Assembly: GCA_046726415.1 (NCBI GenBank)
Contig: JBKPAK010000017.1
Span: 1 to 34,635, forward strand
Direction: 5' to 3'
DNA length: 34,635 nt
Origin: Candidatus Methylomirabilota bacterium
Lineage (GTDB): Bacteria; Methylomirabilota; Methylomirabilia; Rokubacteriales; CSP1-6
Part shown: piece after piece, positions 9,455 to 34,488 of the stretch
Numbering within the stretch: position 1 is the stretch's first letter
Layout of the letters: each line of letters opens with the position of its first letter
Notes under the pieces: generated by a model
What the model saw: the letters and a program-made list of their open reading frames with translations, nothing else
Database searches by the model: none
Told to the model about the DNA's origin: nothing
Made by a program: the position numbers and the translations under genes

Positions 9455-9530
9455 ATAGTCCGGCGCGCCGAACCGGAACGGTCTATGCTCACTTGGTCGG
9501 TGGTAACCACTGCGAGCAGGGAGGCCAACC

Positions 9531-9923: not shown

Positions 9924-9948
9924 GAGTTGGCCACGGGGCGCCGACCGC

Positions 9949-10095: not shown

Positions 10096-10111
10096 AGCGA
10101 GAAGCTCTCAC

Positions 10112-10160
10112 CGCGGCGGAGCGGAAGTCAACGCGGCGGAGCGGAAGTCAACGCGGCGGA
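10112..10160. repeat. 20-bp tandem repeat (2 perfect copies plus a partial third)
   Basis: CGCGGCGGAGCGGAAGTCAA twice, then CGCGGCGGA. Each full copy carries TTGACT on the minus strand. Confidence 0.9.
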
Positions 10161-10211
10161 TCGGAGTCGAGCGGCGCCCCGTGTCATGCGGTCCTCCCGT
10201 ACAATGGGGCC

Positions 10212-10709: not shown

Positions 10710-10757
10710 AGCCAGCGCCGGAGGCGCGGTCGCCTTGACAGGTCAGGGCGCGGATGG

Positions 10758-11211: not shown

Positions 11212-11221
11212 CACCATCCTG

Positions 11222-18148: not shown

Positions 18149-20290
18149 ATGGAACGCTCGTTTGCCGAGGACGTCAAGCAGCTGGGGTTCGGCGCCGGCC
18201 AGGTCCTGCACGGCGAAGGCATTCTGGCCATCACCAAGGCGTTGCTGGAGTCCGGGGTGAGCTATGTGGGCGGCTATCCGGGCGCTCCCGTCTCGCATCT
18301 CATCGATGTGCTCGCCGACGCCAACGAACCGCTCCTCAAGTCGATGGGCGTCTACTTCGAGCAATCGGGGAGCGAGGCGGCGGCCGCGGCACTGCTGGGC
18401 GCGTCGATCAACTACCGCATGCGCGGCGCCGTCACCTGGAAGTCGGTCGTTGGCACCAACGTGGCCTCCGACGCCCTCTCCCACGTGGCCTCGGCCGGGG
18501 TGCTGGGCGGGGCCCTGATCGTCATTGGAGAGGACTACGGCGAAGGCGCGTCGATACTTCAGGAGCGCACCCACTCGGCCGCCCTCAAATCGAGCGTCCC
18601 CCTCCTCGATCCCCGGACCACCTTGCCGAGCTTCCAGCACTTCGTGCACGAGGGCTTCGGCCTTTCCGAGGCGTGCAACGAACCCGTATTCTTCAGCATC
18701 CGCATCCGCGCCTGTCACCTCCGCGGCACCATGGTGTGCCGCGACAACATCACGCCAGCCATCAGCATGCTCTCCCCGCTGGGGACGCCCAGCTTCAGCC
18801 TCGAGCGCATCAACCTGCCGCCGTTCACCTATGCCATGGAGACGAAGAAGTTCGAGGAGCGGCTGCCGGCCGCGCGCCGCTATGTGGTCGAGCACGCGCT
18901 CAATGAGCACATCCCCGGTCCGGAGAGCGACGTCGGAATCGTCATGCAGGGCGGCGTCTGGAACACGACCCTGCGCGGGCTCGCGAGCCTGGGCCTAGCC
19001 GACCTCTACGGACGGACGCCCATTCCGCTCCTCATCCTCAACTGCCTGCATCCGCTGGTGCCCGAAGAGCTGCTCGGCTTCCTGCGCGGCAAGCGCCGCG
19101 TGCTCGTGGTCGAGGAGGGGATGCCGAACTACATCGAGCGGGAATTGAAAGCGCTGGCCCACGAGGCGCGGCTCGACGTGGAGATTTCGGGCAAGGATGT
19201 GCTGTCGCCAGCCGGCGAGTATGTGCCCGGCCTCGTCATCTCGGGGCTGCGGCGCTTTTTCACCGCGGCGCCCCTCCGCTCGGTGTCGGCGGCCGGCGTG
19301 GAGGAGCGCTACCAGAGCCTGACCGCCCATCAGGGCAGGGTCCGCGCGGTGCTCCCGCAGCCGGTGGCCAAGCGGCCGCCCTCCTTCTGCACCGGCTGCC
19401 CCGAGCGGCCGGTGTTCAGCGCCATGAAAATCCTCAAGCATCAGGATCCCGCCATCGGCGATACCCACGTCGCCCACGACATCGGGTGCAGCACGTTCTC
19501 CACCCAGGCGCCTTTCAACGTCGGCAACTCGGTCCTCGGCTACGGCATGGGGCTCGCCTCCTCCAGCGCGGTGGCTCCGCTCTTCGGCAAGCGGGTCATC
19601 TCGGTCATGGGCGACGGCGGCTTCTGGCACAACGGGCTCACCAACGGTGTGGCCAACGCCGTCTTCAACAAGCAGGACTCGGTGCTCGTCATCCTCGACA
19701 ATTTCTACGCGGCGGCCACCGGCCAGCACCACGTGCCGTCGACCGGCACCAACGCCCGCCGCGAGACGGTCCCCATGACCATCCCTCAGGCCCTTCAGGG
19801 ATTGGGCGTCAAGTGGATCCGCACGGTGAACTCCTATCGCATCCCGGCCATGATGCGAGCGCTCCGGGAGGCGCTCACCACGCGCGAGGGTGGGCTCAAA
19901 GTCATCATCGCCAAGGGGGAATGCCAGCTCGAGCGCCAGCGCCGCGAGCGCCCGCGGCTGCGGGCACTCGCCGCCCAGGGGCAGACGATCGCGCAACCGC
20001 GCTTCGGCGTCGACCCCGACGTCTGCACCGGCGATCACTCGTGCATGCGCCTCAACGGGTGTCCGTCCCTCACCCTTCGCGAAAGCTCCGACCCGCTGCG
20101 CGAGGATCCCGTGGCCCACGTCGACGAGACCTGCGTGGGCTGCGGAGTGTGCGGTGAGGTGGCCCACGCCGCTACCCTCTGTCCGTCTTTCTATGAAGTG
20201 CGGGCGATTCGCAACCCGGGTTGGTGGACGCGGTGGCTGGGGGGCGTGCGCCGGGCCATCATTCGTCGGCTGGCTGCCGTGGGAGGGTAA
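18149..20290 (+). CDS. iorA: indolepyruvate:ferredoxin oxidoreductase alpha subunit family
   Basis: GGYPGAPVS, RPPSFCTGCPER, DIGC, the TPP motif MGDGGFWHNG...LDN, and a C-terminal ferredoxin-like domain (CVGCGVC). Confidence 0.92.
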   Translation: MERSFAEDVKQLGFGAGQVLHGEGILAITKALLESGVSYVGGYPGAPVSHLIDVLADANEPLLKSMGVYFEQSGSEAAAAALLGASINYRMRGAVTWKSVVGTNVASDALSHVASAGVLGGALIVIGEDYGEGASILQERTHSAALKSSVPLLDPRTTLPSFQHFVHEGFGLSEACNEPVFFSIRIRACHLRGTMVCRDNITPAISMLSPLGTPSFSLERINLPPFTYAMETKKFEERLPAARRYVVEHALNEHIPGPESDVGIVMQGGVWNTTLRGLASLGLADLYGRTPIPLLILNCLHPLVPEELLGFLRGKRRVLVVEEGMPNYIERELKALAHEARLDVEISGKDVLSPAGEYVPGLVISGLRRFFTAAPLRSVSAAGVEERYQSLTAHQGRVRAVLPQPVAKRPPSFCTGCPERPVFSAMKILKHQDPAIGDTHVAHDIGCSTFSTQAPFNVGNSVLGYGMGLASSSAVAPLFGKRVISVMGDGGFWHNGLTNGVANAVFNKQDSVLVILDNFYAAATGQHHVPSTGTNARRETVPMTIPQALQGLGVKWIRTVNSYRIPAMMRALREALTTREGGLKVIIAKGECQLERQRRERPRLRALAAQGQTIAQPRFGVDPDVCTGDHSCMRLNGCPSLTLRESSDPLREDPVAHVDETCVGCGVCGEVAHAATLCPSFYEVRAIRNPGWWTRWLGGVRRAIIRRLAAVGG

Positions 20291-20297
20291 GAGGCCC

Positions 20298-21851
20298 GTG
20301 GGCGAGCCACGCATCATCAGCGCGCTGATCCCCGCGGTGGGCGGGCAAGGTGGAGGCGTGCTGGCGGAGTGGATCGTGGAGGCGGCCCTGGCCGATGGCT
20401 ACACCGTGCAGAGCACGTCGATTCCCGGGGTGGCCCAGCGGACGGGCTCGACGTCGTACTATGTCGAGCTGTTCGAGGAGCGTGACCACCGCGCGGCGGG
20501 ACCCCCCATCTTCTCGCTGTATCCCGTCCCCGGAGCCCTCGACATCCTGCTCGCTCCGGAGTTCCTCGAAGTGGGGCGCGCCATCGAGCTGGGGTTTCCA
20601 TCGCCCGCCCGCACCACGATCATCGCCAGCTCGCATCGGCTGTACGCCATCCACGAGAAAATGGCCATTGGGCGGGGCATTTACCCGATCGACGATCTGG
20701 AGGCGGCCGCCCGCGCCTTCTCGCGCACGGCGATCGTCTTCGACGCGCTCGCCTTGGCCCGCGAGCACGGCACCGAGGCCAACGCCGTTCTCCTCGGAGC
20801 CCTGCTGGCCAGTGGGGCCCTTCCGGTGAGCGAGGCCGCCTACCGCAAGGCCATCGAGGTCAAGGGCGTGCAGGTCGCCGCCAATCTGAGGGGCTTCGAG
20901 GTCGGCGTCGAGCGCGCCCGAGCCGTCATGGCCTCCCGACGCAACGGTCAGGCGACGGCCGCGACACCAGGAGTGACACCACCCCCGGAGTTCGCCGACG
21001 AGGTGGCGGTCCTTCCCGAGTCGCTGCGCGCGATCGCGAGCACGGCGCTGGCTCGTCTCGTCGACTATCAGGATGCCGCCTACGCCCGCCGCTATCTCGA
21101 CCGGATCCGGCCCTTCGTCGCGCGCGACCCCGAGCTGGCCAGCCTCGTGGCGCGCCAGCTCGCCGTGTGGATGACCTACGAGGACGCCATTCGCGTCGCC
21201 CAGCTCAAGACGCGGTGGACCCGCTTCGAGCGGATTCGCCGAGAGGCCCGCGATCCGGGCGCGGAAATCGTCGTCACCGACTACTTGAAGCCCGACCTCG
21301 ACGAGATCTACGGCATCCTGCCTCACCGGTTGGTGGCGCCTTTTGCGCGCTGGGCGGAGCGGCGGTGGCCCCAGGGTCGACCCACGCTCGGACAGCACGT
21401 CCGAACGACGACGGTGATGGGATACCTCCGCCTGTGGCTGCTGGCTCGCTGCCGATGGTTGCGCGCATCCTCCTATCGCGCGCACCACGAGGGGGCTCGC
21501 CGGGAGCGCTGGCTCGAGCTGGTGGAGCGCTGCGCCGCGCGCAATCTCGAGTTGGCGCGCGAGGTGGCCCAGGCCCCTCGGCTCGTAAAGGGCTATGGGC
21601 AGGTGCGCCGCCGTCTGGAGACGACGTTCGACGAGCTCCTGGCGTACGTGTCGCGCGCCGCTGACCTCGACGCGTCCCGTGACGGCGATTTTTACGTTGC
21701 CCGAACGCTGTCTCGCCGCTGCCGTGAGCTCGTGCTGGCGGGGCCCGATGGCGAGGCGCAGGCATCGCGTGTGGCGGCCGATGCCGTGACGCGGCTGGAG
21801 GCCAGCGACCGTGCGGGGGCGCTGGCCGCGCTCGGCGAACGGGCCTCGTAG
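20298..21851 (+). CDS. iorB: indolepyruvate oxidoreductase beta-subunit family protein (long form)
   Basis: AVGGQGGGVL, SIPGVAQRTGSTSYY, RLVDYQDAAYA, WMTYEDAIRVA and LVKGYG. GTG start 7 nt after the iorA stop. Confidence 0.9.
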   Translation: MGEPRIISALIPAVGGQGGGVLAEWIVEAALADGYTVQSTSIPGVAQRTGSTSYYVELFEERDHRAAGPPIFSLYPVPGALDILLAPEFLEVGRAIELGFPSPARTTIIASSHRLYAIHEKMAIGRGIYPIDDLEAAARAFSRTAIVFDALALAREHGTEANAVLLGALLASGALPVSEAAYRKAIEVKGVQVAANLRGFEVGVERARAVMASRRNGQATAATPGVTPPPEFADEVAVLPESLRAIASTALARLVDYQDAAYARRYLDRIRPFVARDPELASLVARQLAVWMTYEDAIRVAQLKTRWTRFERIRREARDPGAEIVVTDYLKPDLDEIYGILPHRLVAPFARWAERRWPQGRPTLGQHVRTTTVMGYLRLWLLARCRWLRASSYRAHHEGARRERWLELVERCAARNLELAREVAQAPRLVKGYGQVRRRLETTFDELLAYVSRAADLDASRDGDFYVARTLSRRCRELVLAGPDGEAQASRVAADAVTRLEASDRAGALAALGERAS

Positions 21852-22357
21852 TCGCCCGCCAGCTCTAGTCTGCTCCCGCGGAAGAAGTCCCGCCAGAAGC
21901 TGGAACTCGCCGGTTGCCTCGCGGTTTGGCCGAGCAGCGCTGGCCCCGCGAATCGGTGCCGGGCACGATAGGCGAAGCTGTAGAAGGCCCAGATGCTCCG
22001 TGGCGTGAGCTGGCCGTTGAAGGCGATGTCGAGCGCGAGGTGCATCAACCCGCCGACGAGATAGCCGGCGAGCCAGGGGGTCTGAAGCCACCAGGCGAGC
22101 ACGCCGAGAGCCGCAAACAGTTCATAGGAGTGCAGGGCGAGCACGAGCCGCTGCACGCGGCCCTCCAGGTAGTAGCGCAGAAACGTTCCGGGACGGAGAT
22201 CTGCCTGGCGTTCGAAGAGCACGTAGTCCACGGCGTGATCCACGTCGATGAAGAATCCACCGAGGGCGATCCCCGCGGTGAGGGCGGCCGAGCCGGTGAG
22301 CATGGCCGCCGCGCCGCACACGCCGGCGGTGGTGACAAGGTGGCCGCCTGGGCTCAT
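21692..22357 (-). CDS. membrane-bound metal-dependent hydrolase-like protein (YdjM/DUF457-like motifs)
   Basis: MSPGGHL, IDVDHAVDY, LHSYE and MHLALD His/Asp motifs between hydrophobic segments. The 3' end overlaps iorB by 160 bp. Confidence 0.75.
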   Translation of the reverse strand: MSPGGHLVTTAGVCGAAAMLTGSAALTAGIALGGFFIDVDHAVDYVLFERQADLRPGTFLRYYLEGRVQRLVLALHSYELFAALGVLAWWLQTPWLAGYLVGGLMHLALDIAFNGQLTPRSIWAFYSFAYRARHRFAGPALLGQTARQPASSSFWRDFFRGSRLELAGDYEARSPSAASAPARSLASSRVTASAATRDACASPSGPASTSSRQRRDSVRAT

Positions 22358-22539
22358 GGCCGGATGCGTGGCAAACCTCGTGCCGGAGATCGCCGCTTCG
22401 GAAAGTCCCGCCATTGTTGTCAAGGACAGCCCAGCGGAATCGGAGACTGGCCATTTTCGATCAGCGGCGGGACAAATCTGCCCGCTCGGTGATCGTATCG
22501 ATTGGCGCGGCACATGGGCCCGGCGCGGGAAAAGCGCCG

Positions 22540-22578
22540 TGATATACTGGGTCATCGGGTCGACACTTTCTGGAGGAG
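22540..22578 (+). promoter_or_regulatory. extended -10 promoter and RBS of the nuo-like operon
   Basis: TGaTATACT at 22540-22548 and GGAGGAG just before TTG 22583. Confidence 0.55.
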
Positions 22579-22582
22579 TGCC

Positions 22583-22936
22583 TTGTCCGGTTACGTGGCC
22601 GTCTTCATCTTCGCCTTGATGATCGTCGCCTTCGGCGTGGTGTCGATGGCCGCGGCGAAAGTGCTCCGGCCGTCTCGACCCGATCCCGTGAAGCTCATGA
22701 ACTACGAATGCGGAGCGGAGCCGATCGGCGAGGCCTGGGTGCGGTTCCCGGTGGGGTTCTATCTGGTCGCGCTGGTGTTCGTGGTCTTCGATGCGCTGGC
22801 GGTCTTTCTCTTCCCGTGGAGTCTGGTGCTGCGCGAGGCTGGGATGCCGGCCTTCTGGACCATGGCGGCGTTCGTGGGGATCCTCGGACTTGGCTGGCTG
22901 TATGCCTACCGCGAAGGCGTACTCGAATGGAAGTGA
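22583..22936 (+). CDS. nuoA: complex I subunit A
   Basis: [30 protein letters not shown] and EGVLEWK. TTG start after GGAGGAG. Confidence 0.93.
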
Positions 22937-23562
22937 AGCCGCCCATCCCCCAAGTGCCGCCGCCCGGGTGGAGCGAGGTCAAGGACCTTCAGGAGTGGGA
23001 GAAGTACCACCAGGAGCGCGGTGACAACGACAAGACCAGTGAGGTTCTGGCCAGCATCGCCGACGCCATCCACCACATGCCGGGTGGCTGGATTGCCACC
23101 ACGTCGACCGACAAGATCTTCAACTGGGCGCGAAAGTCCTCCCTGTGGCCGGTGACCTTCGGCCTCGCCTGTTGCGCCATCGAAATGATGGCCACGTTCG
23201 CCTCGCGCTTCGACGTCGAGCGCTTCGGCATGGTGCCGTGGGCGTCGCCGCGCCATTCGGATCTCATGATCGTCTCGGGTACCGTCACCATCAAGATGGC
23301 CCCCATGCTCAAGCGCATCTACGACCAGATGCCCGATCCCAAGTGGGTCGTATCGATGGGGTCGTGCGCGAACTCCGGCGGTCCGTTCCGCCACGGTTAC
23401 CACGTGGTGAAGGGGGTGGACCGTGTCGTGCCGGTGGACGTGTACGTGCCTGGATGCCCGCCCACCCCTGATTCGCTGATGTTCGGCCTGTTGAAGCTGC
23501 AGGAAAGAGTCGCCGAGTTCCAGAAAACTGGCACGCGATCGGCTGCGGCCCCCGAGGAGTAA
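22927..23562 (+). CDS. nuoB: complex I subunit B
   Basis: [26 protein letters not shown] and [10 protein letters not shown]. Confidence 0.96.
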
Positions 23563-23565: not shown

Positions 23566-24018
23566 GTGACCGCCGCCCAGGCCGTCGAGAGAATCCGGGA
23601 GCAGTGTGACGTCGAGCCGAGCCTGGAGGGCGGGCTGGTCGTCATTCGCCTCGCGCGCGAGCGCTGGCTGGCGGTGGCGCGGGTCGCCAAGGACGATCTC
23701 GGGTGCCACTACTTCAACTGGCTGAGCGCGATCGACTGGAAGGAGAAGGGGCTCGAGGTGCTTTGCCGCCTGGAGAATCTCGACACAGGACTGGTGGTGA
23801 TGCTGCGCTGCCAGTTGCCCCCGGGCGACGCGCGCTGTCCGACGTTGACCGGGCTCTTCCGCGGCGCCGACTGGATGGAGCGGGAGTGCTACGACCTCCT
23901 CGGCGTGACCTTTGACGGTCATCCCGACCTCCGCCGCATCCTCCTCGGTGACGACTGGGAAGGACATCCCCTGCGCAAGGACTACGCCGTCGACATGCCG
24001 TTCACCCCGTATCGCTGA
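23566..24018 (+). CDS. nuoC: complex I subunit C (short form)
   Basis: ADWMERECYDLLGVTFDGHPDLRRIL...GHPLRKDY. Confidence 0.94.
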   Translation: MTAAQAVERIREQCDVEPSLEGGLVVIRLARERWLAVARVAKDDLGCHYFNWLSAIDWKEKGLEVLCRLENLDTGLVVMLRCQLPPGDARCPTLTGLFRGADWMERECYDLLGVTFDGHPDLRRILLGDDWEGHPLRKDYAVDMPFTPYR

Positions 24019-24049
24019 GGCCACGGCCTCGCGCCAAAGGAGCCGACGC

Positions 24050-24685
24050 ATGATCTACGAACTGCGCACCTACACACTCGTGCCGGGAACGCAGGCGCAG
24101 TATCTGAAGCTCAACGCGGAGGTGGGCCGCAAGATCCGCGGCGACAAGTACGGCAAGCTCGAGGGGGCCTGGACCACCGAGTTCGGGACCCTGAACCAGT
24201 ATGTGCACTTGTGGGGGTATCCCGACCTCAACGAGCGGGACCGGCTGCGCGGTGAGCTGGCCAAACACGAGGAGTGGACCAAAGGCTACGGTCCCCAGAT
24301 TCGCCCCTTCATCCTCGCTCAGGAGAACAAGATCCTCTCGGCGGTCCTCCCCCTGCAGCCACCCGCCGACGCCGGGCATCTGTACGAGCTGCGCTGGTAC
24401 CGCACGCAGACTGGCAAGGCCGGAGAGTGGCTCAACCACTTCAAGGCTATTCAGCCGGTGCGCGAGAAGTACTCCCGCCGCGTTGGGCTGTGGCAGACCG
24501 AGATGGGCCAGCTCAACGAGGTCGTGCACATGTGGGCCTATGGCGATCTAAACGAGCGGGCCGCCACGCGGGCCAAGCTGGCGCAGGATCCCGAGTGGCA
24601 GGCCTTCCTGGGCAAGGCCACGCCGCTCCTGGTCAACATGCAGTCCGTCATCCTCACTCCCACCCCCGTGTCGCCGATGAGGTAG
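24050..24685 (+). CDS. tandem (two-domain) NIPSNAP-family protein
   Basis: Two repeats: IYELRTYT...G-W-TEFGTLNQYVHLWGY.DLNER and LYELRWYR...GLWQTEMGQLNEVVHMWAY.DLNER, ending LTPTPVSPMR. AAGGAG RBS. Confidence 0.92.
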   Translation: MIYELRTYTLVPGTQAQYLKLNAEVGRKIRGDKYGKLEGAWTTEFGTLNQYVHLWGYPDLNERDRLRGELAKHEEWTKGYGPQIRPFILAQENKILSAVLPLQPPADAGHLYELRWYRTQTGKAGEWLNHFKAIQPVREKYSRRVGLWQTEMGQLNEVVHMWAYGDLNERAATRAKLAQDPEWQAFLGKATPLLVNMQSVILTPTPVSPMR

Positions 24686-24693
24686 CGCGGCGC

Positions 24694-25857
24694 ATGACCG
24701 ACCCGAGCGGGCGGACGGTCGTCGAGATCGGATACGGGGGCAACGAGCGCCTCATGATGAACATGGGGCCTCAGCATCCGTCTGCCCACGGCGTCTTCCG
24801 CGCCATTCTCACCCTCGAGGGCGAGACCGTGGTGGCGGTGGACGCCGTCATCGGCTACCTCCACCGCTGCCACGAGAAGCTCGGGGAGACCCTCACCTAC
24901 GTGCAATACCCGAGCATCGCCTCCAAGACGGACTACGTGGCGGCCATGACGGCGGAGCTGGCCTACGTCTCCGCCGTCGAGAAGGTCGGCGCCATCGAAG
25001 TGCCGAAGCGCGCGCAGTATCTCCGGGTGATCGCCGCCGAGCTGCAACGAATCGCCTCGCATTGTCTGTGGCTGGGCACATGGTGCATGGACATGGGGGG
25101 CGCCCTCGGCGGCGGCGCTACCATCTTCCTCTACTGCCTGCGCGAGCGGGAGGCCATTCTCGACCTGTTCGAGGCGCTCACCGGAGCTCGGCTCCTCTAT
25201 GGGTTTCACCAGATCGGCGGCGTGCGGTACGACGTCCCCCCGGCATGGGCCGACCGGGTGCGGGACACGCTGAAGCTCATCGAAGGGCGGGTCGACGAAT
25301 ACGAGGCGATGCTCGAGGGCAATGCCTTCTTCGAGGTGCGCACCAAAGGCGTGGGGGTGATCTCCCGTCAGCTCGCCCTCGAAGTCGGCATCGCGGGACC
25401 GCTCCTGCGCGGATCCGGAGTGGCCTTCGACGTCCGCCGGGCCGAGCCCTACTCGTCGTACCAGGACTTCGACTTCAAAATTCCCGTGCAAACAGCGGGA
25501 GACTGCCACGCGCGGTACCGGGTCCGGATGGTCGAATTCAGAGAGTCGATGGCCATCGTGCGCCAGGGGCTCGACGGGCTTCCGGAAGGGCCGATCTCGT
25601 CACGGCCCGGCGTGAAGTCTGTCGGCCAGGTGCGGGTCCCGAAGGGCGAGGGCTACGCGCGGGTGGAAGGCGCGCGGGGAGAGGTGGGCTGCTACCTCGT
25701 GGCTGACGGCGGTCCCAAGCCCTACCGGCTCAAGTGGCGCGGGGCATCGTTCTCGAACCTGTCGGTGCTCCCCCACATCATCCCCGGGCACAAGGTGGCC
25801 GACGTCGTGGCCATCATGGGATCTGTCGACCCCGTGTTCGGCGAAGTGGATCGGTGA
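24694..25857 (+). CDS. nuoD: complex I subunit D
   Basis: NMGPQHPSAHGVFR, GYLHR, ELQRIASH and GSVDPVFGEVDR. No Ni-binding CxxC pairs. Confidence 0.95.
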   Translation: MTDPSGRTVVEIGYGGNERLMMNMGPQHPSAHGVFRAILTLEGETVVAVDAVIGYLHRCHEKLGETLTYVQYPSIASKTDYVAAMTAELAYVSAVEKVGAIEVPKRAQYLRVIAAELQRIASHCLWLGTWCMDMGGALGGGATIFLYCLREREAILDLFEALTGARLLYGFHQIGGVRYDVPPAWADRVRDTLKLIEGRVDEYEAMLEGNAFFEVRTKGVGVISRQLALEVGIAGPLLRGSGVAFDVRRAEPYSSYQDFDFKIPVQTAGDCHARYRVRMVEFRESMAIVRQGLDGLPEGPISSRPGVKSVGQVRVPKGEGYARVEGARGEVGCYLVADGGPKPYRLKWRGASFSNLSVLPHIIPGHKVADVVAIMGSVDPVFGEVDR

Positions 25858-26840
25858 CCTTGCCCCCGCTGGCCATCTACACCATCGAGGCCTTCGTCCT
25901 GCTCAACGCCGTCATCCTCATGGTCACGTACGTGACCTTGCTGGAGCGGAAGTTTGCCGCGCGGATGCAGTCGCGCATCGGCCCCTACTACGTAGGGCCG
26001 CGAGGGCTCCTCCAGCCGATCGCCGACGCCCTCAAGCTCATGATGAAGGAGGACGTGGTGCCGACCGCGGCCGATCGCCCCGTGTATCACCTCGCCCCTC
26101 TCGTCTTCCTGGTGCCGTGCATCCTGATCTTTGCCACGATTCCCTTCGCCCCCGAGCTGGGGCTCGTCGATCTCAACATCGGCGTGCTGTTCTTCCTCGC
26201 CGTCTCCGCCCTGGAGATCGTCGGGTTGTTCATGGCAGGCTGGGGCTCGAACAACAAGTACGCCCTGCTCTCCGCCATGCGAGCGGTGAACCAGATCATT
26301 TCGTACGATCTGCCGTTCATCTTCGCCGCCCTCGTTCCCGTGGTCCTGGCCGGCTCCATGCAGCTCTCGGCCATCGTGGTGGCCCAGCAGGGACTGTGGT
26401 TCGCCGCCTATCCGGTGATCGGGCAGCTCGCCTTTGTCGCGTATCTGGTGGCCACCCTGGCCGCGGAGAACCGGGTTCCCTTCGACATCCTCGAGGCGGA
26501 GTCCGAGCTGGTGGCGGGGTTCCGCGTGGAGTACAGCGGGATGAAGTTCGCCCTCATCCAGCTCGGGGAGTATGCGCACATGATCGGCTCGTCGTTCCTG
26601 GGCGCCTTGCTCTTCCTGGGGGGCTGGTTGGGGCCGGGACCAGCGTGGCTGGGCCCGCTGTGGTTTCTCCTCAAGGCGCTGGTGATCTTCCTGCTCGTGA
26701 CGTGGGTCCGCTGGAGCTTCGTGCGCATTCGCGTCGACCAGATCCTGGCCATCTCCTGGAAGCTGCTGCTCCCAGCCACCCTGCTCATCCTGTTGGGGAC
26801 CGGCTTCTGGGTGGCTGTGCGAGGGACCGGTGGGGTCTAA
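25854..26840 (+). CDS. nuoH: complex I subunit H
   Basis: LERKFAARMQSRIGP, GLLQPIADALKLMMKE and NRVPFDILEAESELVAGF. GTGA overlap with nuoD. Confidence 0.95.
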   Translation: MTLPPLAIYTIEAFVLLNAVILMVTYVTLLERKFAARMQSRIGPYYVGPRGLLQPIADALKLMMKEDVVPTAADRPVYHLAPLVFLVPCILIFATIPFAPELGLVDLNIGVLFFLAVSALEIVGLFMAGWGSNNKYALLSAMRAVNQIISYDLPFIFAALVPVVLAGSMQLSAIVVAQQGLWFAAYPVIGQLAFVAYLVATLAAENRVPFDILEAESELVAGFRVEYSGMKFALIQLGEYAHMIGSSFLGALLFLGGWLGPGPAWLGPLWFLLKALVIFLLVTWVRWSFVRIRVDQILAISWKLLLPATLLILLGTGFWVAVRGTGGV

Positions 26841-27387
26841 CGGCAAGGGGTTCTGGGCGGAGACGGGACAACTGGTGGCCGCGGTGGGGCGGGCCATGGG
26901 AATCACCTTGCGAAACCTCCTGCGCAAGCCGGTGACCGTCCGCTACCCTGACGTGAAGCGAGAGTATCCCGACCGCTTCCGCGGAATTCTGGCCCTCACC
27001 TACGACCCGGAGACGGGCGAAGAGAACTGCATCGGCTGCCGGCTGTGCGAGTACATCTGTCCGCCCCAGGTCATCAAGGTCGAGATGCTGAAGGCGGAGA
27101 AGCGGAATTACGCCAAGACCTTCACCCTCGAGCTGTACGCGTGCGAGTTTTGCGAACTCTGCGTTCAGGTGTGCCCCACCGACGCCATCATCATGATGAA
27201 GTCGTTCGATCTCGCCACCAGCGACCGCCGCGATCTGCTGCTCGACAAGGACCGCCTGCACGCCCTGGGCCTTCAGTTTGAGCCCTCGTGGGCGACGGGC
27301 AACCGGCTTCGCGACATGCAGGCTCCGCCCAAGGCGGTCAAGGCTGGGGCCAAAGCGCAAGGAGAGGCGAAGGAGTCCGGCGAGTGA
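26830..27387 (+). CDS. nuoI: complex I subunit I (2x[4Fe-4S])
   Basis: VTVRYP, RFRG, CIGCRLCEYICP and CEFCELCVQVCPTDAI. Confidence 0.95.
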   Translation: MGSNGKGFWAETGQLVAAVGRAMGITLRNLLRKPVTVRYPDVKREYPDRFRGILALTYDPETGEENCIGCRLCEYICPPQVIKVEMLKAEKRNYAKTFTLELYACEFCELCVQVCPTDAIIMMKSFDLATSDRRDLLLDKDRLHALGLQFEPSWATGNRLRDMQAPPKAVKAGAKAQGEAKESGE

Positions 27388-27878
27388 CGGGCGAGGTCCT
27401 GGGGTTCTGGGGAGTAGCCGTCGTGCTGCTCGCCGCGAGCCTCGGCGTCGTCCTCACGCGCAATCTCTTCCACGCGGTGCTCTACCTGGCCGCGGCCCTG
27501 GTGGCCACGGCGGTGGTCTTCCTCCTCCTGGACTCGCCCTTCCTGTTCGCCGTCCAACTCTTGCTCTATGCCGGCGGTGTGGTCACCATCGTCGTCTTCG
27601 CGATCATGCTGACGGAGCGGCTGGTGGGGGAGACGCTGGCCCAGACGAACCGCTACGTCCTGAATGGCGCCATCGTCTCCACCGCCCTGTTCGTGGCGAT
27701 CGCAGGCTTCCTGTTCCAGACGCGCGCCGTGACCGCCCCGCCCGCCCCGGCGGGTGACGCCACGGCAGCCGTGGGCCGGGCTCTGCTCGGTCCCTTTGCC
27801 CTCTCGTTCGTCCTGCTCGCGGTCCTGCTGGTCGTCGCGCTCATCGGGGCCGTTTACTTCGCCCGCGCCGACGACTAG
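27384..27878 (+). CDS. nuoJ: complex I subunit J
   Basis: TRNLFHAVLYL and QLLLYAGGVVTIVVFAIML. GTGA overlap with nuoI. Confidence 0.93.
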   Translation: MTGEVLGFWGVAVVLLAASLGVVLTRNLFHAVLYLAAALVATAVVFLLLDSPFLFAVQLLLYAGGVVTIVVFAIMLTERLVGETLAQTNRYVLNGAIVSTALFVAIAGFLFQTRAVTAPPAPAGDATAAVGRALLGPFALSFVLLAVLLVVALIGAVYFARADD

Positions 27879-27881: not shown

Positions 27882-28181
27882 ATGCCCCTGGAGGCGTATC
27901 TGACCCTCGCCGGACTCGTGTTCGCCATCGGCCTCTTCGGCGTGCTCACCCGGCGCAACGCCATCGGAATCCTGCTCGGCATCGAGCTGATGCTCAATGC
28001 GGTGAACATCAACCTCGTGGCCTTCAGCCGCTTCCGCGCAGATCTGACCGGCGTGATCTTCGCGCTGTTCACCATCGCGATCACCGTGGCCGAGATCGCC
28101 GTGGGGCTCGCCATCGTCATCATGATCTTCCGAGTGCGCCGGACGGTCGATGCCGACCACCTCGACCTCCTCCGCGGCTGA
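27882..28181 (+). CDS. nuoK: complex I subunit K
   Basis: RRNAIGILLGIELMLNAVNIN and AEIAVGLAI. Confidence 0.95.
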   Translation: MPLEAYLTLAGLVFAIGLFGVLTRRNAIGILLGIELMLNAVNINLVAFSRFRADLTGVIFALFTIAITVAEIAVGLAIVIMIFRVRRTVDADHLDLLRG

Positions 28182-28388: not shown

Positions 28389-30212
28389 ATGAAGATCTTG
28401 GTCTGGCTTCCACTCGCGGTTCTGGGGCTCCCGTTCGTCTCCTTCGCGCTCCTCGCCCTCCTGCCGCCCTTGCGGCGAACCGGCCGGCCGGCGGGAGTGG
28501 TGGGAATCGCCGCCATGGCCCTGGCCCTGGCCGGGGCCATCGCCATGTGGCGCGAGGGCTTCTACAGCACGGCGATGTGGAGCTGGCTGCCCGGCGAGGG
28601 TGGGCCCATGGCCACCGTGGGCATCATGGTCGACCCGCTGTCGCGGACGATGCTCGTCCTGGTGGCGCTGGTGTCGCTGCTGGTGCAGATCTACTCGCTG
28701 GCGTACCTCCATGACGAGCCGGGCCCCTCCCTGGGCCGCTACTACGCCTACCACTCGCTGTTCGCCTTCTCCATGATGGGCCTTGTCATCTCGCCGACCT
28801 TTCTCCAGATGTTCGTCTTCTGGGAACTGGTGGGGCTCTGCTCGTACCTGCTCATCGGCTACTGGTACGATCGACCGACCGCCGCGCAGGCCGCCGTCAA
28901 GGCCTTCTGGGTCACCAAGTTGGGCGACCTCGGCTTCATAATCGGCATCGTCATGCTCTGGGGCGCGACGGGGACGTTCGAGTTCCCCGCGCTGTTGCGC
29001 ATGGCCGAGGATCAGGCGCTTCCCCTCGAAGGGCTCGGGTTGATCATGTTCTTCATCTACCTGGGCGCGGTGGGCAAGTCGGCCCAGGTCCCGCTCCACA
29101 TTTGGCTGCCCGACGCCATGGAAGGGCCCACGCCGGTGTCGGCCCTCATCCACGCCGCCACCATGGTCACCGCCGGCGTGTTCATGGTGACGCGGGTCCA
29201 CGCGCTCTTCGCCCTCGTGCCCGATCTCCTCGCGCTCATCGCGTGGATCGGCGCCGTCACCGCCCTCATGGCTGCCACCATGGCCTGCGTGGAGAGCGAC
29301 ATCAAACGCGTGCTGGCGTACTCGACGGTGTCGCAGCTCGGCTACATGATGGCCGCCGCGGGCGCGGAGGCGCCCGACGCGGGCTTCTTCCACCTGCTGA
29401 CCCACGGGGTGTTCAAAGCCCTGCTGTTCCTCGCCGCCGGGGCCCTCATTCACGCGGTGGGGACCAACGACATCTTTCGCATGGGTGGACTGCTGCGCGC
29501 GATGCCCCAGACCGGCATCGTCTTCATCGTCGGGACGCTCGCGCTCTCCGGTGTGCCACCTCTGTCGGGTTTCTTCTCGAAGGAGGCCATTCTCGGGGGC
29601 GTGTGGGAGAAGCATCCGGGGATTCCCTTCGCCATGCTGGCCCTCACGGCGTTCCTCACCGCCTTCTACATGTTCCGGGTGATCTTCGTGACCTTCTTCG
29701 GGCGCGGTCACCCGGCCGGCCATCCCCACGATCCGCCCGCGCTGATGAGCGTGCCGCTCTGGATCCTCTTCATCCTCACCGTGGCCACCGGCCTGCAGCT
29801 CCTGGTGACGCCCAGTGACGACGCGCACGGACCGGGATGGCTGATGCCATTGTCCATTGCCCTGGCGCTCGGCGGCATTGCGCTGGCCTGGCTGATCTAT
29901 CAGCGCGGCGCGATCGACCCGGCCCGGATGGCTCGGGCGCTCGCCCCGCTCGACTACATGGCGCGCCACCGGTACGGACTGGATGCGCTGGCCGTGGGCC
30001 TCTATCGGGCGTGCCTCCTCGGCTTTTCGCGGCTGATCGGTTGGATCGATCGCTACGTCGTCGATGGCCTCCTCAACGCGACGAGCGCGTGGTGCCTGCG
30101 GGCGGGTGACCGGCTGCGCCGGATCCAGACCGGGCAGCCGCAGGACTATGTGTACGGCGTGGCCTTCGGCGTTCTCCTGGTCATCGTGTGGGCACAGTGG
30201 TGGCGGCGATGA
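28389..30212 (+). CDS. nuoL: complex I subunit L
   Basis: FWELVGLCSYLLIGYW, GKSAQVPLHIWLPDAMEGPTPVSALIHAATMV and HLLTHGVFKALLF. Confidence 0.96.
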   Translation: MKILVWLPLAVLGLPFVSFALLALLPPLRRTGRPAGVVGIAAMALALAGAIAMWREGFYSTAMWSWLPGEGGPMATVGIMVDPLSRTMLVLVALVSLLVQIYSLAYLHDEPGPSLGRYYAYHSLFAFSMMGLVISPTFLQMFVFWELVGLCSYLLIGYWYDRPTAAQAAVKAFWVTKLGDLGFIIGIVMLWGATGTFEFPALLRMAEDQALPLEGLGLIMFFIYLGAVGKSAQVPLHIWLPDAMEGPTPVSALIHAATMVTAGVFMVTRVHALFALVPDLLALIAWIGAVTALMAATMACVESDIKRVLAYSTVSQLGYMMAAAGAEAPDAGFFHLLTHGVFKALLFLAAGALIHAVGTNDIFRMGGLLRAMPQTGIVFIVGTLALSGVPPLSGFFSKEAILGGVWEKHPGIPFAMLALTAFLTAFYMFRVIFVTFFGRGHPAGHPHDPPALMSVPLWILFILTVATGLQLLVTPSDDAHGPGWLMPLSIALALGGIALAWLIYQRGAIDPARMARALAPLDYMARHRYGLDALAVGLYRACLLGFSRLIGWIDRYVVDGLLNATSAWCLRAGDRLRRIQTGQPQDYVYGVAFGVLLVIVWAQWWRR

Positions 30213-31738
30213 CGGCGCTGCCCCTACTGTCCGCCATCACCTGGGCGCCATTTGTGGGCGCGCTCCTCATCATGTTCACCGCGCGTCACCGTCCGCTGGC
30301 CGTCCGACTCATCGCGGCCGTCACCACGGGAATCTCGGCGGTCCTCTCGATCTGGATCTACGCCGCCTACGACCGGGAAGTGGCGGGCTTTCAGTTCTAC
30401 GAGAAGCTCGCTCTGGTGCCGCCCCTCGGCATCAACTACGAGCTGGCGGTGGACGGGATCAGCCTGCTGATGGTCCTCCTCACCTCCATCATCATCTTCG
30501 CCGGGGTTTTTGCGTCGTGGACCGTGGCCGTGCGGAGCCAGGAGTTCTACGCCCTCCTATTGGCTCTGGTCACCGGCGTCTACGGCGTCTTCGTCTCCCT
30601 CGACCTCTTCATCTTGTTCCTTTTCTACGAGCTGGCGGTGTTGCCGATGTACCTGCTCATCGCCATCTGGGGCTCCACGGGAGAGGTGCGACCGCGGGGG
30701 ATCTTCGCCTGGGCCTATCGCGAGACCGGCGTGGGAACCAAGGAGTACGCGGCCATGAAGCTCACGCTGTATCTGCTGCTGGGCTCCGCGTTCATCCTGG
30801 TCGGCATCTTCGCCCTGTACGTCAGCGCCGGGGTGTCGTCCTTTTCGTTCCTGGAGATGGAAACCATCGCGTTCCCGCTGGCCCTGCAGCGATGGGTATT
30901 CTTCGCCTTCTACCTCGGCTTCGGCGTGCTGGCCGGCATCTGGCCCCTGCACACGTGGTCGCCCGACGGCCACGCCTCTGCCCCCACCGCGGTGTCGATG
31001 CTGCACGCCGGCGTGCTCATGAAGCTCGGCGCGTACGGCGTGGTCCGGGTGGGTATGGGGCTGCTGCCCGACGGCGCGGTCGATCTCGCGTGGCTGGTGG
31101 GGGGGATCGCCTGCATCAATGTCGTGTACGGTGCCCTGTCCGCCATGGCCCAGGGCGATCTCAAGTACGTCATCGCGTACTCGTCGGTCTCGCACATGGG
31201 GCTCGTCATGCTTGGGGCCGCCACCCTCACCGAGGCCGGGCTGAATGGCTCCGTCTTCCAGATGTTCGCCCACGGCGTCATGACCGGTCTCTTCTTCGCC
31301 TTGGTCGGGCTGGTATACGAGAAGGCTCACTCGCGCGAGATCGCCAAGATGGGGGGCTTCGGCCGCGTGATGCCGGGTATCGCGACGGCATTCACCCTCG
31401 GCGGATTGTCTTCGCTGGGCCTCCCGGCGACTTCGGGATTCGTGGCGGAGGTGCTGACGTTCATGGGAGCGTGGCGCTCGTCCGCTCCGTGGTGGCTCTT
31501 CCCGGCGGTGGCCGGCACGTTCCTGACGGCGGTCTACGTCCTCCGCGTGACCAAACAGATCTTCTGGGGCCCCCCGTCGCCACACTTCCACCACCTCGAG
31601 GACGCGCGCGGACCCGAATGGGTGGCCATCTGCCTCCTGGTGGCGGTCATCGTGATCTTCGGCATGGTTCCCGGCATCGCGCTGGGGCCGGTGGACACGG
31701 CCACCGTCCCCCTCCTCCTGAGGATGATCGGCCCCTGA
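30209..31738 (+). CDS. nuoM: complex I subunit M
   Basis: VDGIS, FYELAVLPMYLLI, WPLHTWSPDGHASAPTAVSMLHAGVLMKLGAYG and IAYSSVSHMG. ATGA overlap with nuoL. Confidence 0.95.
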   Translation: MTALPLLSAITWAPFVGALLIMFTARHRPLAVRLIAAVTTGISAVLSIWIYAAYDREVAGFQFYEKLALVPPLGINYELAVDGISLLMVLLTSIIIFAGVFASWTVAVRSQEFYALLLALVTGVYGVFVSLDLFILFLFYELAVLPMYLLIAIWGSTGEVRPRGIFAWAYRETGVGTKEYAAMKLTLYLLLGSAFILVGIFALYVSAGVSSFSFLEMETIAFPLALQRWVFFAFYLGFGVLAGIWPLHTWSPDGHASAPTAVSMLHAGVLMKLGAYGVVRVGMGLLPDGAVDLAWLVGGIACINVVYGALSAMAQGDLKYVIAYSSVSHMGLVMLGAATLTEAGLNGSVFQMFAHGVMTGLFFALVGLVYEKAHSREIAKMGGFGRVMPGIATAFTLGGLSSLGLPATSGFVAEVLTFMGAWRSSAPWWLFPAVAGTFLTAVYVLRVTKQIFWGPPSPHFHHLEDARGPEWVAICLLVAVIVIFGMVPGIALGPVDTATVPLLLRMIGP

Positions 31739-33150
31739 TGAGCTCCCCCTTCGTCCTCGAGCACGGCCTCGGAATCGCGCTGCTCGTGGTCTTCGTCGCG
31801 GGGCTCTTCGCGCGTGGCGAGAATCGGCGATTCGTGGGATGGCTGGCGACGCTCGGCGTTTTCGCCCTGGCCGTGGCGTCGTTGCTCCTGGCGCCGCTGG
31901 AGGGTCCCGCCGGCGCCGTCTTCGTGCAGGATGGACTGGCCCTCTTCGCCAAGCGGTTGCTCCTGGGGGCGACCTTCATCGGTCTGCTGGGAGGCCTGTC
32001 GCTTCCCGGCGCCCCGTTTGTGCGCCGCTCACTCGAGTACCATATGCTGATCCTCACCTCGCTGTTGGGGATGCTCGTGCTGGCGTCCGCCCGCGACATC
32101 ATCCTGCTGTTCGTGGCCTTCGAGCTGATGTCCATCCCGCTCTACGTGCTCTCGGGCTTTGTGAAGCGCGACGGCGTGGCCGCAGAGTCGGCGTTGAAAT
32201 TCTTCCTGGTAGGCAGCGTGTCGTCGGCGGTGATGGCGTATGGACTCTCGTTCGTGTGGGGCGCGGCCGGCACGAGCCATCTCGACGGCGTGGCCAAGGC
32301 CTCCGCCTCCGGCGACCCTTTGCTCGCGCTCGGGCTTTTGACCGCATTTGCCGGCTTCGGGTTCAAGATCGCGGCCGTCCCTTTCCATATGTGGGTCCCC
32401 GACACCTACGAGTCGGCCAGCACCCCCTTCGTGGCGTGGCTCAGCGTGGCCCCGAAGGCCGCCGGCTTCGTGGCCATCCTGCGCGTGTACGTCGAAGGGG
32501 TCGGCGATGGGATCGGATGGCTCGTCCCGGTGGCCGCCGGCCTGGCTGCCATCACCATCGTCGCCGGCAACCTGATGGCCATTCCCCAGCAAAACGCCAA
32601 GCGGCTGCTGGCGTATTCAGGGATCGCGCACATCGGCTACATGCTGATCGGCTTGGCCGCGGCCTCCGCCTCCGGGACGGCCATGGTGCTCTTCTATCTG
32701 GTGGCGTATGTCTTCGGGAACATGGGAGCTTTCCTGGTGGTCGAGGCGGTGAATCGCGCCGAAGGCTCGGAAAGCTTGTCGGCGTTCTCGGGTTTGGCCC
32801 AACGCTCGCCGGTCCTCGCCCTCTGCATGCTCCTCTTCCTGCTGTCGCTCGGAGGGATTCCCTTCGTGGCAGGGTTCTGGGCAAAGCTGTACGTCTTCTG
32901 GGCAGCGGCCGAGCAGGGACTCTACTGGCTCGTGCTGCTCGGCGCGGTTCTCACCGTCGTTGCCCTCTTCTACTACCTCGTGGTGGCCAAGCGCATGTAC
33001 GTGGAGCCTCCTCTGCGGACGGAACGCGTGCCGCTGGCCCCGACGCTCGCGCTGGCCCTGGCCCTCTGCGTCACCGGGATCGTCGCGATTGGCGTGTATC
33101 CGAAGCCACTGGTGATGGCCGTCCTCCGCGTAGCGAGCCCGCTCTTCTGA
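31738..33150 (+). CDS. nuoN: complex I subunit N
   Basis: AFELMSIPLY, ESALKFFL, FKIAAVPFHMWVPDTY, KRLLAYSGIAH and SLGGIP..GFWAK. TGATG overlap with nuoM. Confidence 0.95.
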   Translation: MSSPFVLEHGLGIALLVVFVAGLFARGENRRFVGWLATLGVFALAVASLLLAPLEGPAGAVFVQDGLALFAKRLLLGATFIGLLGGLSLPGAPFVRRSLEYHMLILTSLLGMLVLASARDIILLFVAFELMSIPLYVLSGFVKRDGVAAESALKFFLVGSVSSAVMAYGLSFVWGAAGTSHLDGVAKASASGDPLLALGLLTAFAGFGFKIAAVPFHMWVPDTYESASTPFVAWLSVAPKAAGFVAILRVYVEGVGDGIGWLVPVAAGLAAITIVAGNLMAIPQQNAKRLLAYSGIAHIGYMLIGLAAASASGTAMVLFYLVAYVFGNMGAFLVVEAVNRAEGSESLSAFSGLAQRSPVLALCMLLFLLSLGGIPFVAGFWAKLYVFWAAAEQGLYWLVLLGAVLTVVALFYYLVVAKRMYVEPPLRTERVPLAPTLALALALCVTGIVAIGVYPKPLVMAVLRVASPLF

Positions 33151-33250: not shown

Positions 33251-33883
33251 ATGATTGCCAAGAGTCCCCAACCACTGCGACCGCGTGACGGCCGGAACGC
33301 CCGGGAAGCGATTTTGGTTGCGGCAACCCGCCTCATGGGGATCCACGGCTACCGAAACACCTCGATCGATGACGTGCTGCGGGAGAGCGGGGTTGGCAAA
33401 GGCAACTTCTACTACCACTTTCGGAGCAAGGAAGAGCTGGGCTACGCGATTCTCGATCAGCTCATCGAGGCCTTCCTCGATCGCACGCTGCGGCCTTGCT
33501 TCTCCGACGCCGACGTGCCCCCGCTCGGCCAAATCCGATGCTTTCTCGACCGGGTCCGCGAGCTTCAGCGGGAGCACAACTGCGTGGGTGGGTGCCCTCT
33601 GGGAAACCTGGCCGCTGAACTGTCTGACCTCCACGAGGGATTCAGAGGCTTACTCAACGGGGTCTTTTCGGCGTGGCGCCAGCGGCTCACGGAGGCCCTT
33701 CGGGATGCCCAAGGGCGGGGAGACGTGCACGCCGACTGCCGGCCGGAAGCTGTCGCGCATTTTCTGGTGGCCTCCCTCGAGGGCGCCATGCTGATGACGA
33801 AGCTCACGAAAGACATCGGCGTCATGGAGCAGTGCGTCCACGAGATGAAGCGCTACCTCGCTCTATACGAGATCGCGCCATGA
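33251..33883 (+). CDS. TetR/AcrR-family regulator (NemR/LmrA-like, six Cys)
   Basis: HTH GYRNTSIDDVLRESGVGKGNFYYHFRSKEEL and the C-terminal GGCPLGNLAAE motif. Confidence 0.93.
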   Translation: MIAKSPQPLRPRDGRNAREAILVAATRLMGIHGYRNTSIDDVLRESGVGKGNFYYHFRSKEELGYAILDQLIEAFLDRTLRPCFSDADVPPLGQIRCFLDRVRELQREHNCVGGCPLGNLAAELSDLHEGFRGLLNGVFSAWRQRLTEALRDAQGRGDVHADCRPEAVAHFLVASLEGAMLMTKLTKDIGVMEQCVHEMKRYLALYEIAP

Positions 33884-34488
33884 CGGCACCCACCCGAACC
33901 AAGCCCGACGTGGATGCCTCCTTGGTGGAGGCTTTGCGGCGAGACGACCCGGACGCCGCGGCCCAGCTCGTCGAGACATACGGCGATCGCGCGTTCCGGC
34001 TGGCCCGGCGGATCACTGGTTCCAATGAGGACGCTGAGGAAGTGGCTCAGGACGCGCTGTGGACCGCCGCGCGCAAGATCCAGACCTTTAAGGGCGAGTC
34101 GGCGTTCGGCAGCTGGCTCTACCGGATCACGGCCAACGCGGCGTACATGAAGCTTCGCTCGCGGCGATCCAAGGCCAACGAGATCGCCCTCGACGATGTC
34201 TTGCCAGCCCTCGATGAGGAAGGGCGACACTTCGAGCCGATGGACGACTGGTCGACCCGCGTCGATGAGAACGCGCTGCAGGGCGAGCTGCGCGACGTCC
34301 TGGAGAGCGCCATCGCCGCGTTGCCTGCGGACTACCGGACGGCCGTGGTCCTTCACGATGTCGAGGGACTCTCCAACCCCGACATTGCAGAGGCGCTTGG
34401 GATCAGCCTGCCCGCGGTCAAATCGCGGATCCACCGCTCGCGCCTGTTCCTGCGCCAGCGGCTCTCCGAGTACCTCAAGACCGCCTGA
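33880..34488 (+). CDS. ECF-type sigma-70 factor
   Basis: DAEEVAQDA, FKGESAFGSWLYRITAN (region 2) and LHDVEGLSNPDIAEALGISLPAVKSRIHRSR (region 4). ATGA overlap with tetR. Confidence 0.94.
   Translation: MTAPTRTKPDVDASLVEALRRDDPDAAAQLVETYGDRAFRLARRITGSNEDAEEVAQDALWTAARKIQTFKGESAFGSWLYRITANAAYMKLRSRRSKANEIALDDVLPALDEEGRHFEPMDDWSTRVDENALQGELRDVLESAIAALPADYRTAVVLHDVEGLSNPDIAEALGISLPAVKSRIHRSRLFLRQRLSEYLKTA

Follow-up and report, generated by a model that had tools for sequence, protein, structure and literature searches.

A tandem NIPSNAP gene is kept between nuoC and nuoD in the operon for a NuoEFG-less complex I of the bacterial order Rokubacteriales

Lineage-specific accessory proteins of complex I are known from several groups, and among those closest to the case described here are NdhS, NdhV and NdhO, the ferredoxin-docking subunits of cyanobacterial and chloroplast NDH-1, a complex I without NuoE, NuoF and NuoG; their genes lie mostly outside the core operon. 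Nqo15 of Thermus thermophilus complex I is a small, cofactor-less, lineage-specific and frataxin-like protein that sits on the peripheral arm of a canonical, NuoEFG-containing enzyme, and it too is encoded outside the main (nqo) operon. In the nuo operon of Campylobacter and Helicobacter, NuoX and NuoY replace NuoE and NuoF and are thought to adapt the enzyme to flavodoxin. Here, we describe a gene for a two-domain NIPSNAP protein that stands between nuoC and nuoD in a nuo operon without nuoE, nuoF and nuoG (hereafter ‘headless’), found on a contig of a Candidatus Methylomirabilota bacterium of the order Rokubacteriales (JBKPAK010000017.1 of assembly GCA_046726415.1; its full 34,635 nucleotides are referred to as the window). 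The mitochondrial NIPSNAP1/2 proteins of eukaryotes are known from mitophagy signalling rather than from complex I, and we know of no established biochemistry for any NIPSNAP protein, the mitochondrial ones included. The question addressed is how electrons enter an 11-subunit complex I that has no NADH module: in PMC11238625, the direct donor of this enzyme is said to remain unknown and a search for a common donor protein to have failed, and NdhS, NdhV and NdhO of cyanobacteria are cited as the only known adaptor subunits of this kind.

The operon in the window runs in the order nuoA, nuoB, nuoC, NIPSNAP, nuoD, nuoH, nuoI, nuoJ, nuoK, nuoL, nuoM and nuoN, and so holds the whole 11-subunit set, while a Pfam search of all open reading frames (ORFs) found no nuoE, nuoF or nuoG in the operon, in which nuoD runs directly into nuoH. 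A reading of the sequence by itself had proposed an intact tandem NIPSNAP ORF of 211 residues with its own ribosome-binding site, 31 bp after nuoC and 8 bp before nuoD, splitting that pair. All of this was confirmed: Pfam identifies the flanking ORFs as NuoC and NuoD, the spacer of 31 nt separates the nuoC stop codon (24016-24018) from the NIPSNAP ATG at 24050, and the ATG of nuoD (24694) follows 8 nt past the NIPSNAP stop codon (TAG, 24683-24685), with the GAGG that would serve nuoD (24679-24682) lying within the last NIPSNAP codons. The NIPSNAP ORF exceeds the curated threshold of PF07978 by a wide span (178.3 bits, cut-off 22.3) and matches the profile in two stretches, hence two domains, the second covering residues 112-209 on profile positions 1-102; both halves were also recovered in a search of the whole genome. 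No promoter-like or terminator-like site was found among those looked for on the + strand between nuoC and nuoD, and by its anatomy the gene belongs fully to the transcription unit of the nuo genes. Database comparison indicates that the gene is real, since 1768 proteins match it at E≤1e-3, the best 120 of which are nearly all exactly 211 amino acids long (identity 71-100%), and since its ratio of non-synonymous to synonymous substitution (dN/dS) is about 0.11. The Q-module beside it looks redox-competent, because the N2-cluster cysteine motifs of NuoB (CCxxE, GSCA and GCPP) and the eight invariant cysteines of NuoI (C67, C70, C73, C77, C105, C108, C111 and C115) are kept.

The locus can be set beside the described systems. 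Like NdhS, NdhV and NdhO, the NIPSNAP protein is small, soluble, lineage-specific, without a redox cofactor and basic, a charge that would suit an acidic donor, and the core in question is likewise one of 11 subunits without the NADH module. Those three, however, are subunits proven by structures, whereas binding of NIPSNAP is something that we infer, and the SH3-like fold of NdhS and NdhO is unlike that of NIPSNAP. Nqo15 differs from NIPSNAP in its fold and in belonging to a canonical enzyme, whereas the NIPSNAP gene lies within the operon of a headless one. NuoX and NuoY are comparable in that their genes, too, are non-Nuo additions within a nuo operon without the NADH-oxidising subunits, but they occupy the nuoE and nuoF slots after nuoD, in operons that keep nuoG, and are unrelated to NIPSNAP.

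The conservation of the nuoC/nuoD junction was surveyed across the phylum, in 251 genomes. Matches to NIPSNAP at E≤1e-10 turned up in 186 of them (153 of the 158 genomes of family f1 and 19 of the 21 of f2) and headless-type NuoD was found at E≤1e-90 in 214, with NuoD orthologues of at least 76% identity confined to the families f1, f2, f4 and f5, which together are the order. When the 150 best matches to either protein were compared by position, NIPSNAP lay immediately upstream of nuoD and in the same orientation in 121 of the 131 genomes common to both lists, with a gap between alignment ends of -1 to 270 nt (median 18). Direct inspection showed the order nuoC-NIPSNAP-nuoD in 28 of the 30 best loci and in all eight f2 loci inspected. 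A GTDB-wide scan found 286 relatives, and the best 80 of the 286 all belong to one orthologue group (type A, see below); the arrangement was present at 72 of these 80 loci, two were cut by contig ends and three had an extra gene between. In total, at least one NIPSNAP gene occupies the junction in 137 of the 145 genomes, from four families, in which the nuoC/nuoD junction could be read, so that the gene is encoded and co-inherited with those of the core subunits. Leaving aside genomes flagged as unpublished (G216, G217 and G076), the figures become 134/142 in total, 27/29 among the best loci and 119/128 by coordinates. The count covers neither six f2 genomes present on the NuoD list only (G233, G235, G238, G242, G243 and G244) nor three in which the junction was unreadable (G249, G111 and G175). 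Since linked genes and close kin are non-independent samples, these results are given as counts without statistics. A contig break falls inside NIPSNAP beside nuoD in G076, G106, G206 and G179, and in G141 the nuoD that comes after NIPSNAP is truncated. Neither the headless nuoD nor a NIPSNAP orthologue was found in two near-complete genomes, G105 (99%) and G202 (92%). A recent random insertion, in which case sister genomes should have nuoC and nuoD adjacent, fails against 137 occupied junctions out of 145; NIPSNAP at the junction is old, going back to the base of the order.

Nine of the best 80 records carry the titles of other taxa (L106, L117, L136, L139, L144, L153, L158, L164 and L167, titled as Acidobacteria, Gaiellaceae, Acidoferrum, Limnocylindria, Deferrimicrobiaceae, Binatia, Nitrosotalea, Verrucomicrobiia and Dormiibacterota). 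These titles look like mislabels, because seven of the nine records match, by coordinates, contigs of f1 genomes. Unusually long spacers between nuoC and NIPSNAP were seen in G198 (286 nt, L091 3610-3895) and G211 (368 nt, L087 1333-1700); as candidate remnants of a second NIPSNAP gene of type B (see below) they were rejected, being repeat-rich and without a significant tblastn match to NIPSNAP, and insertion of small repeat elements into the operon may account for them. The NIPSNAP gene is frameshifted in G163 (L054 5298-5931), is shifted by 1 nt near its 3' end in G180 (L181), where it reads through into nuoD, and has a deletion of about 25 residues together with a frameshift in G122 (L182). 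For G163 and G180, whose assemblies have few contigs, an indel error is as probable an explanation as a true pseudogene. The apparent NIPSNAP-NuoD fusions in G180 and G122 were rejected on account of these frameshifts as sequencing, assembly or pseudogene artefacts, and three singleton NIPSNAP + NuoD proteins (P0273-P0275) were rejected as natural fusions because their domain matches are fragmentary.

The genome from which the window comes (7.6 Mb in 352 contigs, 98% complete, and with homologues that, where their sources are named, come from Candidatus Rokubacteria/Rokuibacteriota of the phylum Methylomirabilota) also encodes a second complex I of canonical type, its contig C281 carrying nuoB, nuoC, nuoD, nuoF, nuoH, nuoI and nuoK. 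A gap of 94 nt separates the nuoC alignment from that of nuoD in this operon, in which no NIPSNAP was found, nor was there a NIPSNAP match on the canonical-type nuoD contigs of relatives (0 of 5 checked). Matches to nuoF lie on contigs C281, C8 and C225, and never on the contig of the window (C17). The NIPSNAP gene is specific to the headless operon, as the canonical operons here and in the five relatives are without it, and the link with the absence of nuoEFG, which the sequence-only reading had put forward for checking, held wherever it was examined, every NIPSNAP-bearing operon passing from nuoD straight into nuoH. About seven further NIPSNAP loci occur in the genome in unrelated places, at about 34% identity or lower. 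Because the junction is kept across the order and the gene is absent from canonical operons, a dedicated role of this NIPSNAP with headless complex I is well supported by the comparison of genomes.

Two types of NIPSNAP occupy the junction. Type A, found in most f1 genomes, is 63-100% identical to the protein in the window, while type B (45-53%) was found at all ten f2 loci checked and in some f1 genomes. Only the divergent type stands at the junction in G165, G167, G197, G203, G227, G241 and G231 and in the second operon copy of G168, and five genomes have both types in tandem between nuoC and nuoD, in the order C-A-B-D in G201 (L070) and C-B-A-D in G166 (L062), L147, L151 and L157. In G250, of family f5, the junction carries a single-domain NIPSNAP of about 100 residues (L074 ~2195-2500), a form that would need to homodimerise to make the same barrel. 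A quick maximum-likelihood tree was built from 52 rows, with two paralogues of the window's genome as its root. In this tree type A formed one clade (SH-aLRT 100), the f2 type-B proteins another (97) and f1 type-B proteins a third (88), which takes in the second tandem gene of G201 and the first tandem gene of G166; five long-branch proteins within the type-A clade (P0131, P0135, P0140, P0153 and P0161) were treated as unreliably placed.

The gene has also left the junction. In eight of the 145 genomes, all of f1, nuoC and nuoD are directly adjacent (G115, G117, G136, G148, G170, G189, G212 and G213), and five of these have a close NIPSNAP copy elsewhere: G117 (74% identity), G189 (66%), G212 (71%), G213 (profile E 5.5e-81) and G115, where the copy is fragmentary and lies at the edge of a contig (E 5e-31, 68 residues aligned). 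No close NIPSNAP, but only weak paralogues or nothing, was found in G136 (92% complete), G148 (67%) and G170 (75%). The relocated copies included in the tree (G117, G111, G189, G212, G165 and G249) are scattered within clade A. Those of the related genomes G117 and G111 share a neighbourhood of dienelactone hydrolase, glyoxalase and solute-binding protein genes, and those of G165, G189 and G212 lie in neighbourhoods unlike it; these scattered positions and differing neighbourhoods indicate several independent relocations.

Selection on the protein was compared with that on its neighbours in close genome pairs. The median dN/dS (NG86) of NIPSNAP over nine pairs was 0.114, against medians of 0.085 for NuoB, 0.086 for NuoD (eight pairs), 0.150 for NuoI (eight pairs) and 0.164 for NuoC, so that purifying selection on NIPSNAP is as strong as on the core subunits. 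Mean column identity, taken over the same set of about 28 genomes, was 71% for NIPSNAP, 68% for NuoC, 69% for NuoI and 87% for NuoD. Vectors of pairwise distances from 19 type-A genomes gave a correlation between NIPSNAP and NuoD of r 0.50, compared with 0.34-0.43 for pairs of core subunits; we read this as co-inheritance and at most a weak hint of co-evolution.

The encoded protein has no cysteine and is basic, with an isoelectric point of 9.3 and 27 K+R against 22 D+E. Across types A and B, 43 positions are invariant, among them ten arginines, one histidine in each domain (H53 and H160) and, where helix 1 ends, the loop G26-R27-x-x-R30-G31-D32. This GRxxRGD loop would be the best candidate for an operon-specific contact, as, of all invariant positions, R27, G31 and D32 are the rarest in 43 more distant NIPSNAPs (26-33%). 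An AlphaFold2 model (86-row alignment; pLDDT 97.3, pTM 0.91) has the NIPSNAP fold, consisting of two strand-helix-strand-strand-helix-helix-strand halves that together form a fused dimeric alpha+beta barrel. Its structural neighbours include the sulfur oxygenase reductase 6qpa (Z 18.0), tandem ABM-type barrels or ‘putative monooxygenases’ (3f44, Z 17.2; 2pgc and 3mcs, both Z 17.0), the anthrone-oxidase-like 5f9p (Z 16.8) and solved single NIPSNAP domains (5ixu, Z 16.1, root-mean-square deviation 1.1 Å and 34% identity; 5k9f, Z 15.8). YgiN bound to menadione (1tuv) follows at Z 10.4, with 20% identity over domain 2, heme-degrading barrels also appear lower down, and no respiratory-complex subunit was found among the structural neighbours listed.

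Two groups of solved proteins invite closer comparison. The bacterial single-domain NIPSNAPs (1vqy, 2ap6, 1vqs, 5ixu, 5k9f and 5kak) belong to the same Pfam family and superpose on each half of the model (for 1vqy, TM 0.91 on the target), but they are dimerising single domains with no known function or context, whereas the protein described here is a fused pseudo-dimer with a GRxxRGD loop. The tandem ABM barrels 3f44, 3mcs and 2pgc have the same architecture of two halves in a single chain (TM ~0.7, Z ~17); they, with YgiN, differ from NIPSNAP in that identity to the ABM proteins is 6-11%, the ABM profile PF03992 is not matched at E≤0.001, PF07978 being the sole Pfam family found, and there is no sign of catalysis. 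The ABM fold is thus shared (3f44, 3mcs and 1tuv), which does not imply a shared function. The ESM Atlas returned NIPSNAP clusters only. A predicted complex of NuoC, NuoD, NuoI(1-163) and NIPSNAP had a score of 0.00 and a mark of 0.32; with the controls not folded, this speaks neither for nor against an interaction.

Public sequencing runs place the window, by share of sampled sequence words, mainly in soil metagenomes. In the soil RNA library X19, a 383-nt contig of about 90% identity, from a relative, covers 24636-24971, from the 3' end of NIPSNAP into nuoD, with 44 unaligned letters extending upstream, and a contig of 250 nt is identical to nuoD at 25539-25788. The run X20, probably DNA, has one contig on nuoD, and X22 has none on the stretch; parts left uncovered carry no meaning here. 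The X19 contigs hint, weakly, at transcription of the locus and cannot prove a single transcript.

What the dedicated role might be can be considered in the light of these data. The sequence-only reading had listed accessory subunit, assembly factor and alternative input adaptor as candidates; a dedicated role with the headless enzyme stood up, and each of the three may be the form that it takes. The reading that we favour, tentatively and at somewhat less than an even chance, is that NIPSNAP is a dedicated, lineage-specific, non-redox accessory partner of the NuoEFG-less 11-subunit complex I, placed on the peripheral arm at the site of the missing N-module. The protein would be made together with NuoC and NuoD and would bind the Q-module (NuoC, NuoD and NuoI) on top or laterally, where it is exposed, the place that the NADH module takes in canonical complex I. 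Once bound, it would stabilise the exposed NuoC/NuoD/NuoI surface, and, as it is basic, it could help to dock an acidic soluble donor such as ferredoxin by forming part of the docking site, in the manner of NdhS, NdhO and NdhV. NIPSNAP is described here as possibly a cap or a docking adaptor at the place of the NADH module. The more exacting proposal that it is a stoichiometric ‘head’ adaptor subunit on NuoC/NuoD/NuoI, itself making the docking site for ferredoxin or another donor, seems to us decidedly doubtful.

Several observations weigh against the favoured reading. A subunit might be expected always to be present, and eight of the 145 operons have no NIPSNAP at the junction. The protein may indeed be dispensable, given that G136, G148 and G170 have the operon and no detectable close NIPSNAP, and these three genomes argue for an auxiliary rather than an indispensable protein. 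A protein that functions from another locus, moreover, need not be a stoichiometric subunit. The family is large and promiscuous, with 2197 representative clusters matching besides the other loci in this genome, and the structural neighbours are small-molecule-binding or oxygenase barrels rather than respiratory subunits. Genes that are linked are also inherited and lost as a unit, and the genomes are close relatives, so that counts of co-occurrence do not amount to independent tests; the RNA evidence consists of contigs, for which carry-over of DNA is possible.

Some of the same observations would suit a transient chaperone of Q-module assembly, one that binds new NuoC and/or NuoD, or holds the NuoBCDI arm until the membrane arm is joined to it, and is absent from the mature enzyme. 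Such a protein could well be encoded exactly between nuoC and nuoD, whose products assemble first and are often fused, could work from other loci, could be missing from the operon in some genomes, as in the eight noted above, and would need no cofactor-binding residues, of which NIPSNAP has none. We nevertheless consider a chaperone unlikely: the strong ribosome-binding site and mid-operon place of the gene suggest subunit-like amounts, the retention of two paralogues in tandem would be unusual for a chaperone, and the cell's other, canonical complex I manages without one.

The fold raises the possibility that the protein is a ligand-binding or catalytic alpha+beta barrel that is coupled to the enzyme without being a subunit, for example by binding (mena)quinone/quinol or another aromatic or hydrophobic molecule, or by clearing a reactive by-product as an oxygenase without cofactor. 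The best structural matches (3f44, 3mcs, 5f9p, 6qpa and the menadione-bound 1tuv) and the invariant histidine of each domain point in this direction. Fold likeness at 6-10% identity, however, says little about function, the H-x-W motif is common to the aligned NIPSNAP homologues, and Pfam gives no ABM match; we know of no NIPSNAP with a demonstrated activity, and hold this explanation to be improbable. A passenger gene unrelated to complex I, kept because excision is rarely neutral or because it profits from the way the operon is regulated, might be suggested by the many unrelated contexts of NIPSNAP genes and the losses from the operon, but is very unlikely in view of a position kept across four families and shared by two paralogue types, a dN/dS of 0.11, the joint absence of gene and headless operon in G105 and G202, and the co-variation of NIPSNAP with NuoD.

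While lineage-specific accessory proteins of complex I have precedents, one of NIPSNAP type, encoded at the nuoC/nuoD junction of a headless enzyme, would be a new form of them. Text searches found no paper that links NIPSNAP with nuo genes or describes a NIPSNAP gene in a nuo operon, and searches on Rokubacteria, complex I and nuo returned nothing on this feature; two reviews that mention NIPSNAP, complex I and complexome concern mitochondrial quality control. The main text of a complex I survey (10.1101/2025.03.13.643058) has no occurrence of NIPSNAP, Rokubacteria or Methylomirabil, although operon variants could stand in its supplements. The retention of one particular soluble protein inside the Q-module gene block by an entire bacterial order provides a concrete, clonable candidate for work on electron entry. 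Should the proposal of a respiratory partner prove true, it would give the NIPSNAP family its first functional anchor, and should the ‘head’ adaptor be true, the NIPSNAP fold would gain a first biochemical role, possibly echoed by mitochondrial NIPSNAP1/2; that the NIPSNAP of the headless operon might explain NIPSNAP function in general is speculation. Rokubacteria are abundant in soil, where the variant enzyme may therefore be of importance to energy metabolism.

Table 1 Coordinates of the nuo operon and the embedded NIPSNAP gene in the window
Feature	Position	Strand	Basis and remarks
nuoA	22502..22936	+	PF00507, E 3.5e-32; start codon uncertain
nuoB	22921..23562	+	PF01058, E 2.1e-31
nuoC, short form, 150 aa	23566..24018	+	PF00329, E 1.9e-36
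Shine-Dalgarno-like AAGGAG	24037..24042	+	direct sequence reading; 7 nt before NIPSNAP ATG
tandem NIPSNAP gene, type A, 211 aa	24050..24685	+	PF07978 x2, E 4.1e-53
nuoD, 387 aa	24694..25857	+	PF00346, E 2.5e-89
nuoH	25734..26840	+	PF00146, E 1.6e-107; ORF as called overlaps nuoD end
nuoI, two 4Fe-4S motifs	26830..27387	+	Fer4 families
nuoJ	27288..27878	+	PF00499; true start probably later
nuoK	27882..28181	+	PF00420
nuoL	28389..30212	+	PF00361 + PF00662
nuoM	30188..31738	+	PF00361
nuoN	31735..33150	+	PF00361, E 5.5e-66; tblastn

For nuoH, the true start is probably near 25860, since relatives align only from about residue 35-50 of the ORF as called. Directly upstream of the operon lies a pair of genes resembling indolepyruvate/2-oxoacid:ferredoxin oxidoreductase (18149-21851, + strand; TPP_enzyme_C, and POR + DUF6537), which is found in the same place in the same-genus genome G163 (L054) and at none of eight f2 loci. 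The pair might supply the headless enzyme locally with reduced ferredoxin, and fits an enzyme fed by ferredoxin. Between this pair and nuoA, on the opposite strand, is an ORF of 287 amino acids (21692-22555) with no Pfam match, and a second ORF with no Pfam match, of 697 amino acids, lies at 1390-3483 (+); the DNA being GC-rich, both may be spurious. Directly after nuoN, at 33251-34488 (+), come genes for a TetR-family regulator and an ECF sigma factor. Elsewhere in the genome (G000), apart from both nuo operons, contig C25 carries three NuoL/M/N-like antiporter-type genes at ~9271-13811, which are 40-53% identical to NuoL and NuoM of the window.

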